Below, piece after piece: positions 7,958 through 11,066 of a stretch of DNA of 44,694 nucleotides; position 1 is the stretch's first letter, and every line of letters starts with the position of its first letter. The stretch comes from a bacterium (GTDB lineage Bacteria > Bdellovibrionota > UBA2428). The stretch covers positions 1-44,694 of the forward strand of contig JBAXJW010000001.1 in the NCBI GenBank assembly GCA_037137635.1. Direction: 5' to 3'. A model generated the notes under the pieces. It had not been told where the DNA came from and searched no databases. It worked only from the letters and a program-made list of their open reading frames with translations. The translations under genes and the position numbers were made by a program.

Positions 7958-8668
7958 TTATTTTGTAGGTGTGGCACCTGGTGCTGGAGCTCCCCCACCA
8001 GAATCTTTTCTTTTAATGTATTCCACAATATCTTCATCTTTGAAGGATTCAGGTTTATCACAAGCCATGTTCTTCAGATAGACAGGAGCTATTCCCACTC
8101 CGTTCGCATCCGTAGGATAAACAATGACAGCTGACTTACCTGTTTGCCCAGGAATAAACTCCACTCGACTTCCGTCATTATGCAAAAAAACAGCCCCTAC
8201 TCTATTTATAAGAGGCTTCAAGTTTTGTTTATCTATTAACCGCTTACGTCCCTTACTAAATTCCAAAACTCTTTCGACTTCAGTGCCTCTCATTGCGTAA
8301 AATTCTGAACGATTATTTTTTAATTTTTTTTGAAAAACAAAGGTCACCTCACCCCTGTCTCCTAGAACTTGGCTGAGTTCCCAGAGAAAATAAGTTTTAT
8401 CTCCATCTTTCTTTAGGTAGTCACGAAAAATTCTTCTTATTCTTTTACCATTACTTTTTATGGACCAAGGAATTTTATCAACGGTTCCACAAGTACTTAT
8501 GTGAGAAACTCTAAGATCTCCCGTGGTGGGATCGTAACTCAGTTTTTCAAATTTTTGCTCAGAAGAAACAGAGCCTTCAATCTTAGGAGTTTTTTTAGCG
8601 CATAAAAAATGATGCAAAGAAAAAAATAAAATGAAAAAAAAACCCTTCAAAAAAGGCGTAGCTCTCAT
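7958..8668 (-). CDS. secreted/periplasmic protein, function unknown
   Basis: 236 aa with an N-terminal signal-peptide-like segment (MRATPFLKGFFFILFFSLHHFLCA) and a Gly/Pro/Ala-rich C-terminus. Its ATG overlaps the stop of the upstream gene by 4 nt. I recognise no LptA/OstA-like sequence. Confidence 0.5.
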   Translation of the reverse strand: MRATPFLKGFFFILFFSLHHFLCAKKTPKIEGSVSSEQKFEKLSYDPTTGDLRVSHISTCGTVDKIPWSIKSNGKRIRRIFRDYLKKDGDKTYFLWELSQVLGDRGEVTFVFQKKLKNNRSEFYAMRGTEVERVLEFSKGRKRLIDKQNLKPLINRVGAVFLHNDGSRVEFIPGQTGKSAVIVYPTDANGVGIAPVYLKNMACDKPESFKDEDIVEYIKRKDSGGGAPAPGATPTK

Positions 8669-9846
8669 GTTTTTATTATGCCATAAATCCCAGATAGAAC
8701 GCGCTTTCGAGCCATGACTCGACGCTTTTCTTTGTAGTCACGATGGCTACTGCGCCCCCTTAGATTTTCTACGTAAGATTCCTTGTCCGTTATTTGAATC
8801 TCATAAGGATAATAAAAGGCTTTTCTTTCTCTCAAAACGATTGGAAAAGATTTCAAGAATCTCCTACCCGAAATTGTTTTTTCAAGCTGTTCTCTTATTT
8901 TTTCAAAAACCGGCAAGATTGAATTTTGCACGTGAACTAAATGCTGACATGTAAACTGCAAAGAACGATAGTGAGGAGAACTAAAGGAATTTTTAACTCC
9001 CGCTTCACCCACAGACATAAGAGGAATATCAAGCAAAGAATATTTTTTATCCGCCTCTGAGGGAGAAAGCCTTCCTGCTTCTACGTCTTTTCTTAAAGAC
9101 TCCATATTTTCATGAATGACTTTTATATCTAATAAATTATTAAAAGATTTTCTGGGTTGAATATTCGCATATGAAATCGCACCCAATTCAAAAAACTTTT
9201 CTACTAATCGAATCGCATCAATTTTTTTTTCAACAACAAAACGAAACCCTAAGCTATCGTAAATTAATTCGACATCGTTTTGCGCCTTTGAAATGAGTTT
9301 AACAATCATGGAATTTCGTTCTTTTTTAACTTTTTTCTGATAACGAACAAGAGGAACACCCTCTTCTCCTGGTTTACCAAAACTCCATTTTCGAGGTGCA
9401 ATTTGTCGAACAAAGGGATCAAACTGAGCAAATATTTTCTCACGAGCAGTGTGAAAGTTTTCTAATTTCAAATCATTATCCAGATGTGAAATCGTATGCA
9501 TGACTCGAAGGATCGCACATGCCCAACCAGAGCGCTCACCTTGTGGTACAGAAGCTTCTACAAGTAATTTTAAAATATCATTCTGACTTGTCCGTTCATA
9601 AAAAGACGGAGGTAGCTTTTCATTTGCTTCCAATAAAACGTTTCGAATAAAATTGAGGGCTTCAAAATACACCCTCCAAATTTCTTCATAAGTTATCGGA
9701 TCATCAACATCGTAGCCGTAGGCTTTTAAAAAGGTTTTTGCTTCATTTTTTGTTCGAACATTTAAATGTGAAAAATCAATAATCGATTCCCCAGAAATTG
9801 TTTGATTGATGGGGAGCCAATCATGATGCCACTGGCTTGATGCCAT
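8665..9846 (-). CDS. divergent RelA/SpoT-domain-like (nucleotidyltransferase-fold) protein, function unknown
   Basis: 393 aa. The C-terminal half carries, in the canonical order, degenerate versions of the RelA/SpoT synthetase motifs: KxxxSxxxK (VKKERNSMIVKL), DxxGxRxV (DSLGFRFVV), YxSxQ (HYRSLQ, His replaced by Gln) and EIQI (YPYEIQITD, Arg missing). The N-terminal ~180 aa is helical and unassigned. Confidence 0.45.
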   Translation of the reverse strand: MASSQWHHDWLPINQTISGESIIDFSHLNVRTKNEAKTFLKAYGYDVDDPITYEEIWRVYFEALNFIRNVLLEANEKLPPSFYERTSQNDILKLLVEASVPQGERSGWACAILRVMHTISHLDNDLKLENFHTAREKIFAQFDPFVRQIAPRKWSFGKPGEEGVPLVRYQKKVKKERNSMIVKLISKAQNDVELIYDSLGFRFVVEKKIDAIRLVEKFFELGAISYANIQPRKSFNNLLDIKVIHENMESLRKDVEAGRLSPSEADKKYSLLDIPLMSVGEAGVKNSFSSPHYRSLQFTCQHLVHVQNSILPVFEKIREQLEKTISGRRFLKSFPIVLRERKAFYYPYEIQITDKESYVENLRGRSSHRDYKEKRRVMARKRVLSGIYGIIKT

Positions 9847-9862
9847 TCTTTTTTAAATTTCC

Positions 9863-10417
9863 TTACCAGTCACGATCATCTTCGGAGTCGCTATCGCTAT
9901 CACTCTTTTTATCATCATCAGCCCATTCGTCGTCTTCGGTCCATTCATCTGAATCGTCGAAGTTTCCACGGTCGCCCTCCTCCTCATCTTCCGCTCCTTC
10001 AATCGCAGCTGGATCGCTTTTCCACCAAGCTGGAGGGCCATCCGTGTCTTTATCATCTTCAAACTCTTCGAGTTTTGTTCGTGCTTTTTCATCTTCTTCG
10101 AAGTCATCGACTTCGCTATCAGCCAACACATAGGAAGCAGCTAGCTCTTCTTTTGGAAGAATTTTAGAAAGAGCGACTGCGGGAGCTGCCTTTGTAAGAG
10201 GCTTCGCGGCTTTTTCACCTGATTTTTTAGTCTCGGTTGATTTTTCTGAGCTCTTTTTTGAGGGCTTCTCCTTCGATGCAGCTTTATTTACTTTTTTAGC
10301 CGCAATTTTTTTTGGAGCGCTCGTCTTTTGAGCTTTGGGTGCCTTAGGAACCTTTGAGGCTTCCTTTGGTGCTTTTTTAGTATTTTTACTTTTACTCGCC
10401 ATATGTCCTAAAAACAT
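9863..10417 (-). CDS. bipartite low-complexity protein with Lys/Ala/Pro-rich histone-H1-like N-terminus and Asp/Glu/Trp-rich acidic C-terminus
   Basis: 184 aa (179 aa if it starts at the second ATG at 10402, MASKSK, which has an AGGA 3 nt upstream). Residues ~6-85 are KKAPKEASKVPKAPKAQKTSAPKKIAAKK-type. Residues ~100-184 are strongly acidic with W residues (DEWTEDDEWADDD ... DRDW). The other-frame ORFs here are low-complexity artefacts. Confidence 0.55.
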   Translation of the reverse strand: MFLGHMASKSKNTKKAPKEASKVPKAPKAQKTSAPKKIAAKKVNKAASKEKPSKKSSEKSTETKKSGEKAAKPLTKAAPAVALSKILPKEELAASYVLADSEVDDFEEDEKARTKLEEFEDDKDTDGPPAWWKSDPAAIEGAEDEEEGDRGNFDDSDEWTEDDEWADDDKKSDSDSDSEDDRDW

Positions 10418-10430
10418 TTACAAAGGGCTA

Positions 10431-11066
10431 GTGGGACTTGTGTCAAGAACAGATTTAAAAATTCTTTACGAAGATCATAATTTATTAGTTATTTGTAAAC
10501 ATGCAGGTGTTCACAGTAACGAGCTTGAAATAGAACGCGGTGCGCAATTGTTTAAACCAGTTCATAGAATCGATTATGAAACACAAGGCCTTCTTCTATT
10601 TGCCACTGATAGCGCCTGGAAGACTTATAATGAATTATTTTTGGGTCACTCAATACAGAAGGTCTATCTTGCAGGCGCCCCTTACAAACAAAGCTGCGTT
10701 GGAAAAAAAGAAGGTTTTATAGCCTCTCGCTACCGGTCCTCAAAAAAAACCTCTTATGGAGAAGATTCTGAAAAGTTTCGTTCTTTTCATTCCGTACTCG
10801 AATCCAAGCACATTGTCCGTGAATCTCAAGAAAAGATAAACTTCACGGGCCATATATTTGAAGTCGATCTGATTTCAGGCCGAAGACATCAAATCAGAAG
10901 CTACTTCGCATCCCAAAAGTGTCCCTTAAGAGGCGATAAACTTTACGGAGATATTAGCCCTCAAAAAACACTTGAGCTTTTTAGTTGGAAATTAAACTTT
11001 ATAGATCCTCTTTCGAAAAAAGAAATATCTCTTCAAGCTCCAACTTCTTTATTTACCATTGAATAA
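10431..11066 (+). CDS. RluA-family pseudouridine synthase (catalytic domain only)
   Basis: Motifs HRIDYETQGLLLFA (catalytic Asp) and GRRHQIR. The track ORF starts at 10335 but would overlap the divergent gene by 83 nt. The in-frame GTG at 10431 (VGLVSRTDLKILYEDHNLLV) removes the overlap and fits where the catalytic domain begins. There is no S4 domain. Confidence 0.7.
   Translation: MGLVSRTDLKILYEDHNLLVICKHAGVHSNELEIERGAQLFKPVHRIDYETQGLLLFATDSAWKTYNELFLGHSIQKVYLAGAPYKQSCVGKKEGFIASRYRSSKKTSYGEDSEKFRSFHSVLESKHIVRESQEKINFTGHIFEVDLISGRRHQIRSYFASQKCPLRGDKLYGDISPQKTLELFSWKLNFIDPLSKKEISLQAPTSLFTIE

Follow-up and report, generated by a model that had tools for sequence, protein, structure and literature searches.

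A predicted disordered protein with a lysine-rich head and an acidic tryptophan-motif tail, conserved in one uncultured Bacteriovoracaceae-like family of Bdellovibrionota

The window, the whole 44,694-nucleotide stretch of DNA that was analysed, contains an open reading frame at 9863..10417 on the minus strand, which the ORF listing and translation gave as 184 aa when counted from the ATG at 10417, as a preliminary description of this DNA had claimed. The product joins a polycationic head to a polyanionic tail and is referred to here as the charge-diblock protein (Table 1). The neighbours were also as previously described, with a divergent pseudouridine synthase and a downstream RelA/SpoT-like gene identified by Pfam and NCBIfam matches, and the reported 16-nt gap to the latter was correct (next ATG at 9846). 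The RelA_SpoT Pfam match of the downstream protein, hereafter TIGR04552, was sub-threshold only. The TTG start listed for the RluA-family synthase (10335) overlaps the charge-diblock gene, while the domain match begins at residue 37-63 of the listed ORF, and the true start of the synthase is probably a GTG near 10432-10441. The opposite strand carries a 98-aa Ser-rich ORF (9837-10133).

Table 1. Features of the charge-diblock locus, with positions in the window
Feature	Position	Strand	Remarks
Charge-diblock CDS, 179 aa	9863..10402	-	ATG 10402-10400, TAA stop 9863-9865; ORF listing, homologues, purifying selection
Polycationic Lys/Ala/Pro/Ser-rich head, residues 1-84	10151..10402	-	Composition: net +21, pI 10.5
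Genus-specific conserved middle segment, residues 67-108, KPLTKAAPAVALSKILPKEELAASYVLADSEVDDFEEDEKAR	10079..10204	-	dN/dS 0.01-0.11, alignment
Polyanionic tail, residues 85-179	9866..10150	-	Net -34, 45% D+E, all five Trp
Trp motif 1, DGPPAWWKSDPAAIE	9998..10042	-	Consensus E-G-[PL]-P-x-W-W-K-x-[DN]-P-x-[GA]-I-E
Trp motif 2, FDDSDEWTEDDEW	9923..9961	-	Consensus [FV]-D-D-S-D-E-W-[TS]-[ED]-[DE]-[DG]-x(0-3)-W
C-terminal DRDW, terminal aromatic bearing free carboxylate	9866..9877	-	End residue aromatic in 32/32 members
Five codons MFLGH from upstream ATG 10417	10403..10417	-	Probably 5' leader, non-coding
Possible sigma-70-type promoter: TTGACA 10441-10446, 18-nt spacer, TGTAAA 10417-10422	10417..10446	-	Read from sequence
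TIGR04552/TIGR04562 protein, diverged RelA/SpoT-like nucleotidyltransferase	8665..9846	-	NCBIfam E 1.9e-89
RluA-family pseudouridine synthase, divergent	10335..11066	+	PF00849 E 1.9e-15

Two start codons had been considered for the charge-diblock gene, and the homologues favoured 10402 and not 10417. Every homologue beyond the closest species has an M-A/P-x-K N-terminus preceded by a stop or by non-conserved sequence, and the gene therefore most likely starts at ATG 10402. The MFLGH extension was retained in the closest species only, and the frame upstream of MAxK was closed or unrelated in loci L006 and L007, which belong to the same genus, and throughout the other genera. An AGGA sequence is located at 10406-10409 in the probable 5' leader. 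The TTGACA/TGTAAA pair was conserved across seven genus-g1 loci and may be a sigma-70-type promoter of the charge-diblock gene, in which case transcription would start downstream of ATG 10417. This candidate was absent from the list returned by the consensus promoter scanner and falls outside the -10 rule of that program.

Residues 1-84, counted from ATG 10402, include 26 K, 16 A and 8 P with zero D, R and W, and residues 85-179 include 25 D, 18 E and all 5 W. Trp is confined to the acidic block and Lys is found almost only in the basic block, and no other ORF of the 1.82-Mb genome has a 50-aa window as acidic as that in the tail. The whole protein has a net charge of -13 and a pI of 4.7. The disorder proposed earlier was supported by an AF2 model built on a 16-sequence alignment, which predicted full disorder (mean pLDDT 54) with no domain and a single low-confidence helix (residues 102-110, pLDDT about 52-54).

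Homologues with the same architecture were present in 19/19 genomes of one uncultured Bacteriovoracaceae-like family within the Bdellovibrionota; 21 further genomes of the phylum yielded no convincing homologue, the one match obtained being weak and stop-ridden. A tail-only profile run against 1.84 billion representative proteins matched only 13 clusters, and every one of these that could be placed had the genomic context of the charge-diblock gene. No comparable basic/acidic gene was found within 1.5 kb of rpsT in 30 genomes of the phylum. Scanning of 185,579 species genomes recovered 18 charge-diblock loci, all in MAGs labelled Bacteriovoracaceae or Bdellovibrionota, and a scan of JGI metagenomes recovered 19 loci. 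One metagenome contig (L105) was identical. The family was confined to uncultured MAGs of freshwater, soil and groundwater type, and the family-wide counts given below refer to 32 unique members. The protein in the window shares the features by which members are recognised, namely both Trp motifs at a spacing of 26-29 residues, a terminal aromatic and an N-terminal net-positive block.

The split into a polycation and a polyanion, which had been claimed for the single protein, emerged as a conserved and selected feature of the family. Net charge, about +22 for the head and about -36 for the tail, ranged over +19..+34 for the head in 31/32 members and over -31..-60 for the tail in 32/32, and the whole protein was net negative in every member. 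Head sequences could barely be aligned between genera and the charge was nonetheless kept, so that on these alignments it is charge, not sequence, that is conserved in the head. Values of dN/dS ranged over 0.01-0.11 for the middle and tail, and the head had higher values than the tail, at 0.07-0.58. These estimates, for which dS approached or exceeded saturation, indicate that purifying selection acts on the gene.

The strings PPAWWKSDP, DEWTEDDEW and terminal DRDW quoted in the preliminary description were all present. Columns G122, P124, W126, W127, K128, P131 and E135 of motif 1 and D149, D150, S151, D152, E153, W154 and W160 of motif 2 were invariant in alignment A1 and are embedded in otherwise variable acidic sequence, with motif 1 reading GPPxWW, or in some members LPGWW. 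In 31/32 members, motif 2 was located 26-29 residues past the first Trp of motif 1, and the distance from motif 2 to the terminal aromatic varied from 10 to 30 residues. Exactly five Trp residues were present in 31/32 unique members and the final residue was W in 31/32 and Y in one. A search of the genome for a shared docking hub found motifs 1 and 2 nowhere else. The middle segment, which includes the predicted helix, was near-identical within genus g1 and unconserved in other genera. The non-low-complexity segment LSKILPKEELAASYVLADSEVDDF, which had been put forward as a handle for homology searches, is conserved within the genus only, and the alignments indicate that the Trp motifs are the family-wide handle instead.

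These data bear on whether the ORF could be a non-functional chance frame or the shadow of another feature. Its low-complexity composition and the Ser-rich ORF opposite are what such a reading has in its favour. However, frame, length, architecture and motifs were kept over 32 unique sequences, dN/dS was far below 1 with saturated dS, and neither an Rfam match to the locus nor a tandem repeat (Tandem Repeats Finder, 9800-10480) was found. A chance or non-functional ORF is refuted by the homologues in all genomes of the family, the invariant motifs, the dN/dS values and the conservation over the 32 members, and its probability is negligible. The charge-diblock ORF is a genuine, selected and conserved gene without a name.

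Searches of Pfam-A (E<=0.1) returned 0 families for the charge-diblock protein, and NCBIfam, PHROG, PADLOC and PDB sequence-profile searches returned no entry matching it. Homologues belonging to a known family of unrelated function, which would have spoken against the preliminary description, were looked for and none was revealed. The resemblance that had been drawn to H1, Hc1/Hc2, AlgP and Hlp held as a compositional likeness and not as homology, given the lack of a Pfam match and of a tandem repeat. The Pfam-A search at the above threshold gave no assignment to the Hc1 family (Hc1/Hc2). Linker histone H1/H5 has a winged helix, and no Pfam match and no folded domain in the AF2 model were found here; the same searches gave neither a Pfam match nor an AF2 fold for an HU with a Lys-rich tail (HupB/MDP1/Hlp). 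Tandem KPAA/AAKP repeats and domains of the AlgP/PhaF type were not found, the basic block being N-terminal and non-repetitive. With AlgP and the C-terminal domain of PhaF, both of P. aeruginosa, and with chlamydial Hc1/Hc2 and the mycobacterial HupB/MDP1 tail, the charge-diblock protein has in common a disordered polycation rich in Lys/Ala/Pro(Ser) that is 75-100 residues long and has a pI above 10. In contrast to AlgP, PhaF, Hc1 and HupB, it has no sequence homology to them, no KPAA-type repeats and no folded HU, phasin or Hc1 domain, and only the charge-diblock protein adds an over-compensating acidic Trp tail to a basic block that is N-terminal. AlgP is reported to act on polyP granules (PMC9239181), PhaF is reported to be a disordered RNA-binding protein (PMC12818456), the Lys-rich HupB tail (PMC5676037) and the MDP1 IDR (PMC10810275) offer further precedents, and polycations of these types bind DNA, RNA or polyP without sequence specificity (PMC9239181, PMC12818456, PMC5676037, PMC10810275). 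The combination of a basic head with a GPPxWWK/DDSDEW/terminal-W tail appears to represent a new family.

The TIGR04552 gene followed the charge-diblock gene in 20/20 genome loci and in 18/18 metagenome contigs that were long enough, at a distance of 9-110 nt in nearly all loci. It is conceivable that the charge-diblock protein is a dedicated accessory subunit of this RelA/SpoT-like enzyme, with the Trp tail binding or inhibiting the enzyme, the Lys head tethering it to the ribosome or nucleoid and the two genes forming one functional unit. The invariable gene order would fit, as would its persistence where TIGR04552 identity drops to 35-38% and a spacing that in many loci is only 9-20 nt; the 16-nt gap of the window contains no terminator-like site. 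Several observations nevertheless make such a subunit unlikely. TIGR04552 is single-copy and present in 124/151 genomes of the phylum, the gene upstream of it in 30 loci from other families is unrelated to the charge-diblock gene, and the enzyme was found without that gene in over 100 other genomes and therefore works without the charge-diblock protein. A 120-aa ORF parts the two genes in two loci of a divergent branch. The entire block from the pseudouridine synthase through lptB is syntenic, and adjacency may be inherited order rather than coupling; the same holds for the RluA-type synthase, which was divergent in all loci and whose adjacency as part of a conserved block by itself says little.

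Docking of the tail on the enzyme was modelled with AF2 on a natural in-frame read-through, in which the tail of locus L008 continues into TIGR04552 with the TAG read as Gln, using an alignment of 45 rows, paired and unpaired. The enzyme was predicted at pLDDT >90 and the motif residues 13-52 at 38-52, with no sign of the tail motifs docking on TIGR04552 in this fusion, a result that also speaks against an accessory subunit. Only the last few residues beside the artificial junction rose to pLDDT about 68-79, which the fusion itself can explain. Open frames of 575-620 aa among the TIGR04552 hits were considered as natural fusions and rejected as merely ORFs in high-GC DNA. A toxin-antitoxin pair with a RelA/SpoT-like (toxSAS) toxin was likewise rejected on the single-copy presence of TIGR04552 in 124/151 genomes and the absence of the partner at the 30 other-family loci, and PADLOC returned nothing for the charge-diblock protein or its TIGR04552 neighbour.

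Lys-rich heads or tails similar to that of the charge-diblock protein were found in the same genome on RpoD, L13, L17, a SWIB protein, a peroxiredoxin and a PilZ protein, and by this comparison the Lys-rich head is not peculiar to the charge-diblock protein. With such extensions on several housekeeping proteins, the acidic tail might be the working part and serve as a chaperone or sink for the Lys-tailed proteins of the lineage (RpoD, L13, L17, SWIB and others) or for histone-like proteins, much as prothymosin-alpha does for linker histone H1, the head being merely self-cargo or an autoinhibitor. The location of the most acidic window of the genome in this tail and the negative net charge of every member are compatible with this role. 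However, the Lys-rich RpoD head is also present in families f10, f15, f5 and f13, which are without the charge-diblock gene. Exclusive co-occurrence of the gene with Lys-headed RpoD was therefore rejected, and pure charge leaves the invariant G, P, S and W and the fixed motif spacing unexplained. A chaperone or sink was accordingly judged improbable.

Conserved motif residues and spacing also weigh on the possibility of a condensate scaffold, in which the diblock polyampholyte would coacervate by itself or with RNA, DNA or polyP to form a membraneless compartment and Trp-Lys cation-pi pairs would act as stickers. The extreme charge segregation conserved across 32 members, the full disorder predicted by AF2 and the partition of Trp and Lys between the two blocks are all properties expected of such a scaffold, but stickers need neither invariant Gly, Pro, Ser and Asp nor a fixed spacing of 26-29 residues, and this was considered quite improbable.

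A specific ligand role for motif 1 would follow if the protein were a membrane-proximal adaptor in which GPPxWW is the ligand of a cytoplasmic GYF_2 domain belonging to a family-restricted membrane protein; the analogy is with the GYF domain of GltJ, which binds the proline-rich sequence of AglZ in the gliding machinery of Myxococcus. Among the products of the genome is a 281-aa protein (contig C2, 24187-25029) that has a GYF_2 domain at its N-terminus (E 2.7e-11) and then a hydrophobic segment. Homologues of this protein were detected in 19/19 family genomes, with only weak matches in 3/21 others, the same pattern as for the charge-diblock gene. Proline-rich sequences are bound by bacterial GYF domains (PMC11135422), and in M. 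xanthus TIGR04552 maps close to the glt G1 cluster (bioRxiv 10.64898/2026.08.28.747804). Shared presence in a single clade is not independent evidence, however, and would be seen with any family-specific or fast-evolving gene. Moreover, the GYF_2 and charge-diblock genes are unlinked (contigs C1 and C2), and GPPxWW/LPGWW is not a canonical GYF ligand (canonical PPG[WFYML]; bacterial GYF_2 binding non-canonical). Such an adaptor was regarded as very improbable.

Our best explanation, to which we assign a joint probability of about 0.45, is that the charge-diblock protein is cytoplasmic, intrinsically disordered and limited to one uncultured Bacteriovoracaceae-like family, with the following function that we infer for its parts. 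The head would bind a polyanion (DNA, RNA/ribosome or polyphosphate) without sequence specificity, as H1-like Lys/Ala/Pro tails do in AlgP, PhaF, HupB/MDP1 and Hc1. The tail would over-neutralise the head, fold back on it electrostatically and hold it off the polyanion. The two Trp motifs at their fixed spacing (~27 residues), together with the terminal Trp-COOH, would provide a bipartite docking site for one folded partner, and once engaged, this partner would become tethered to the polyanion and the head would be freed, the logic known for SSB and Hfq with their acidic tips and for HMGB1 with its acidic tail. In their invariant columns, fixed spacing, constant Trp count, terminal aromatic and absence elsewhere in the genome, the Trp motifs behave like docking sites, and the invariant tail motifs must contact something specific. 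Since the whole protein is net negative, no polyanion binding would be expected without release of the tail, and the head could equally be the regulated or the passive part.

Side observations touch this mechanism from both directions. The recurrence of Lys-rich extensions on the nucleic-acid-handling RpoD, L13, L17 and SWIB protein is in its favour. Against it are the extensions on the peroxiredoxin and PilZ protein, as a consequence of which such extensions need not mean nucleic-acid binding, the lack of predicted docking of the motifs on TIGR04552, the obvious partner candidate, and head and tail charges that were without obvious co-variation across members.

Docking by SSB and phage T7 gp2.5 hinges on the final aromatic and its free carboxylate, and the acidic tails of SSB, gp2.5 and HMGB1 both mask a binding site and recruit partners. 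With Hfq, SSB (DDDIPF), gp2.5 and HMGB1 the charge-diblock protein shares an acidic disordered tail on a polyanion-binding chain, the binding being presumed here. The tails of Hfq, SSB and HMGB1 are attached to folded Sm, OB and HMG box domains, whereas the basic part of the charge-diblock protein is itself disordered and there is no homology; its tail is also far longer (about 95 residues) than those of Hfq, SSB, gp2.5 and HMGB1 and has two extra internal invariant motifs. The comparison with the logic of the SSB tail made in the preliminary description was upheld in one respect, namely that all members (32/32) end in an aromatic. Neither Pfam nor the AF2 model gave an OB fold, Pfam returned no SSB match, and the acidic end with its terminal aromatic is the only SSB-type feature present. 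The acidic CTD of E. coli Hfq is reported to be autoinhibitory, masking the binding site and recruiting partners (PMC5606850).

Paired acidic and basic disordered blocks with a eukaryotic character are shared with the C-terminal region of CarD of Myxococcus xanthus, from a related predatory lineage, in which an acidic stretch is combined with HMGA-like AT-hooks, or with an H1-like tail in some myxobacteria (PMC4374960, PMC8156234). CarD differs in having an RNAP-binding CarD_CdnL_TRCF domain at its N-terminus and in the order of its blocks, the acidic one preceding the basic one, and the charge-diblock protein gave no CarD/HMGA-like Pfam match, contains 3 Arg only and is without an AT-hook (RGRP). 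To our knowledge, CarD has no Trp motifs. In eukaryotes, prothymosin-alpha and linker histone H1 are polyanionic and polycationic disordered chains that form a high-affinity complex and stay disordered. These are two separate eukaryotic proteins not known to have Trp motifs, whereas both charges are carried by one chain here.

A more specific proposal is that the Trp motifs and terminal Trp-COOH make up an undescribed bipartite, docking degron-like tag for one conserved machine (e.g. RNA polymerase, the ribosome or the TIGR04552 enzyme), whose engagement of the tail would unmask the H1-like head and pin the machine to the nucleoid, RNA or polyP. This is distinctly unlikely; if true, bacteria would have, in one chain, an equivalent of the prothymosin/H1 or HMGB1 tail switch, and this may be linked to the starvation operon TIGR04552-lptB-rpoN-hpf that contains the charge-diblock gene.

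The immediate impact of these findings is modest because the charge-diblock family is limited to uncultured MAGs and its function is putative. H1-like Lys-rich tails are widespread in Bdellovibrionota, Chlamydiae, Actinobacteria and pseudomonads, and cells must keep such sticky polycations in check. The charge-diblock family offers a clean natural case in which a polycation is fused to its own polyanion with few invariant motifs. Nucleoids of predatory bacteria undergo strong compaction in the course of the life cycle. Should the tail be a switch, it would provide a simple model of how binding to the nucleoid, RNA or polyP is regulated in these bacteria and would define a new class of short linear motif in bacteria, where such motifs have rarely been described.

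The open reading frame reported on the minus strand at 9863-10417, 184 aa when counted from the ATG at 10417, was found at that position and is a genuine gene. When 41 related genomes were searched in six frames, each of the 19 same-family genomes, spread over 10 genera, yielded a single homologue, and the 21 genomes from 12 further families of the phylum yielded none, their one match being spurious and stop-ridden. Within the genus, Nei-Gojobori dN/dS values were 0.01-0.11 for the middle and tail and 0.18-0.24 for the head in closer pairs (0.07-0.58 across all pairs), with dS near saturation or past it. The family homologues and low dN/dS together mark the antisense Ser-rich ORF as the shadow of this gene. 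No DNA tandem repeats and no Rfam match were found in the gene region.

Translation was assigned to the second ATG because all homologues beyond the closest species begin M-A/P-x-K, the MFLGH extension read from ATG 10417 was not kept even in two same-genus loci (L006, L007), an AGGA lies 3 nt ahead of the second ATG, and ATG 10417 overlaps the putative -10 element of TTGACA-N18-TGTAAA. This element is kept in the genus of the window organism and is a putative promoter, while absent from the promoter scanner's list. The divergent pseudouridine synthase and the RelA/SpoT-like gene that follows after 16 nt in the same orientation, both named in the preliminary description, were recovered as an RluA-type enzyme (PF00849, E 1.9e-15) and a TIGR04552/TIGR04562 member (E 1.9e-89). 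With its listed TTG start (10335) the synthase overlaps the gene by ~70 nt; since its domain match starts ~37 residues into the listed ORF, its translation probably begins at a GTG around 10432-10441, which would leave 30-40 nt between the divergent start codons and place each promoter inside the other gene.

Searches of Pfam, NCBIfam, PHROG, PADLOC and PDB sequences with the protein gave no match, and it belongs to none of the described families with which it was compared. No comparable basic/acidic two-Trp protein was encoded close to rpsT in 30 genomes of the phylum. A word-indexed search of 5.8 billion proteins returned 11-15 clusters, named 'hypothetical protein' apart from one misnamed 'RNA polymerase primary sigma factor', and a profile built from the C-terminal 70 residues and searched without a word filter matched only 13 of 1.84 billion representatives, all of 43-228 aa with the motifs C-terminal. 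In a scan with a single genome for each GTDB species, 18 loci turned up, every one in a MAG labelled Bacteriovoracaceae or Bdellovibrionota; a further 19 came from JGI metagenomes, including one with the window sequence, and no match was from a cultured organism. The metagenome contig Ga0194055_10118421 (L105:1-1164) was 100% identical to the window over the gene and its flanks, so the window organism or a very near relative had been sampled independently.

Composition agreed with the described Lys/Ala/Pro-rich head and acidic, Trp-studded tail. Numbered from the second ATG (10402), residues 1-84 include 26 Lys, 16 Ala, 11 Ser and 8 Pro and lack Asp, Arg and Trp altogether (net charge +21, pI 10.5). 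All five Trp fall within residues 85-179, together with 25 Asp and 18 Glu (net charge -34), and the full chain comes to -13 and pI 4.7. The most acidic 50-residue window among all ORFs of the 1.82-Mb, 40% GC assembly lies in this tail. Head sequence was hardly alignable from genus to genus among 16 aligned members, while across 32 unique full-length members head charge was +19 to +34 in 31 (median +22.5; lengths 45-118 residues) and tail charge was -31 to -60 in all. Two Trp motifs were invariant within the tail and had no second occurrence anywhere in the genome. In 31/32 members the DDSDEW Trp came 26-29 residues after the first Trp of motif 1, with variable residues between, motif 2 and the terminal Trp were 10 to 30 residues apart, Trp numbered exactly five in 31/32, and the C-terminal residue was Trp in 31 and Tyr in one. 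The middle segment, described as non-low-complexity, was conserved within the genus but not beyond it.

Coordinates of the coding sequence and the conserved tail motifs
Feature	Position	Strand	Basis
CDS	9866-10402	-	start at second ATG, 10402
Motif 1, invariant columns E-G-[PL]-P-x-W-W-K-x-[DN]-P-x-[GA]-I-E	9998-10042	-	16-member alignment
Motif 2, invariant columns [FV]-D-D-S-D-E-W-[TS]-[ED]-[DE]-x(1-4)-W	9923-9961	-	16-member alignment

AlphaFold2 with the 16-sequence alignment gave a mean pLDDT of 54 and pTM of 0.16, with no domain and a single low-confidence helix at 102-110, and intrinsic disorder with predicted short linear motifs is the best description of the protein. A role as a condensate scaffold is improbable. 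Lys-rich extensions also occur in this genome on L13, L17, a SWIB-domain protein, an AhpC/TSA peroxiredoxin, a PilZ protein and RpoD, where the extension is N-terminal to region 1.1. These Lys/Ala/Pro-rich extensions were 40-100 residues long, the RpoD ORF being L124 (G000:C5:69-3950) and the others lying on contigs C69, C95, C49, C159 and C17 of the same genome. The RpoD extension was common to some families of the phylum, not all, and was present in four without the gene (f10, f15, f5, f13). The head is therefore a generic lineage module, and the unique part of the protein is the Trp-bearing acidic tail. That the tail serves as an acidic chaperone for such lysine-tailed proteins has a small chance of being correct.

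All 20 genome loci shared the order divergent pseudouridine synthase, gene, TIGR04552, 236-aa exported protein and lptB, as did every metagenome contig of sufficient reach. The exported protein (7958-8668, minus strand) lies between TIGR04552 and lptB in all sufficiently long loci, the usual lptA/lptC position. Family members share 22-37% identity in it, and it had no match in Pfam or NCBIfam. The gap to TIGR04552 was 9-20 nt in many loci with no terminator-like site, so the two genes are likely co-transcribed. In the most divergent branch a conserved Cys-containing ORF of 120-122 aa (L118:3299-3661 and L117:3225-3593, plus strand; ...RWW.RCV...HPCWNC.LGKVYR...) is inserted between them and may encode a zinc-binding protein.

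A dedicated accessory protein of TIGR04552 would fit this arrangement and is the least unlikely of the alternatives. TIGR04552 was found in 124/151 genomes of the phylum, and in 30 loci of other families the upstream gene was unrelated, being a lipoprotein gene or none on that strand. The 393-aa neighbour matched the RelA_SpoT Pfam model below threshold only and is little known from the literature, where MXAN_4858 is located close to the glt G1 gliding cluster and its developmental fitness pattern is mild (bioRxiv 10.64898/2026.08.28.747804), and one evolved Bdellovibrio line acquired a frameshift (PMC9888234). Gene and TIGR04552 share a frame with a single stop between in L008, L011 and L017, and a natural read-through was modelled as tail, stop as Gln, 3-6 intergenic codons and TIGR04552 (45 rows: three paired fusions, 13 tails, 29 TIGR04552 proteins). 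The enzyme part exceeded pLDDT 90, residues 13-52 with both internal motifs reached 38-52 in this single-chain model with few paired rows, and a rise to about 68-79 occurred only beside the artificial junction. Docking of the tail on TIGR04552 was unsupported by this model, a weak test given its single chain and few paired rows.

The favored reading, at a confidence of about 0.45, is a self-masked polyanion tether whose tail would also be a bipartite docking site. The head resembles known H1-like polycations and the tail known acidic autoinhibitory or docking tails. Retention of head charge without sequence is what a non-specific polyanion binder should show, and the head would bind in the manner of H1-like tails. 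The acidic block, which over-compensates the head's charge within one chain, would mask it. The SSB tip and HMGB1 tail show the same masking behavior as the acidic C-terminal domain of Hfq. That domain masks Hfq's own RNA-binding surface (PMC5606850), and H1-like tails bind polyP granules in AlgP (PMC9239181), RNA in PhaF (PMC12818456) and DNA in HupB and MDP1 (PMC5676037, PMC10810275).

Charge alone leaves the invariance of Gly, Pro, Ser and Trp positions, the constant 26-29-residue spacing and the terminal aromatic carboxylate unexplained, and these features point to a specific folded partner that would read motifs 1 and 2 jointly. A candidate reader of GPPxWW is a family-restricted membrane protein of 281 aa (L102:1417-2262, plus strand; G000:C2:24187-25029) that has a GYF_2 domain at its N-terminus (E 2.7e-11) and a hydrophobic segment after it. 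Its homologues were present in 19/19 family genomes, the same phyletic pattern as the gene, with weak matches only elsewhere; this co-occurrence is at clade level, however, and thus weak evidence, and that the Trp-tailed protein is a ligand of this GYF_2 protein is the slimmest of the alternatives. In this uncultured lineage, the regularity of the motifs is striking and testable.
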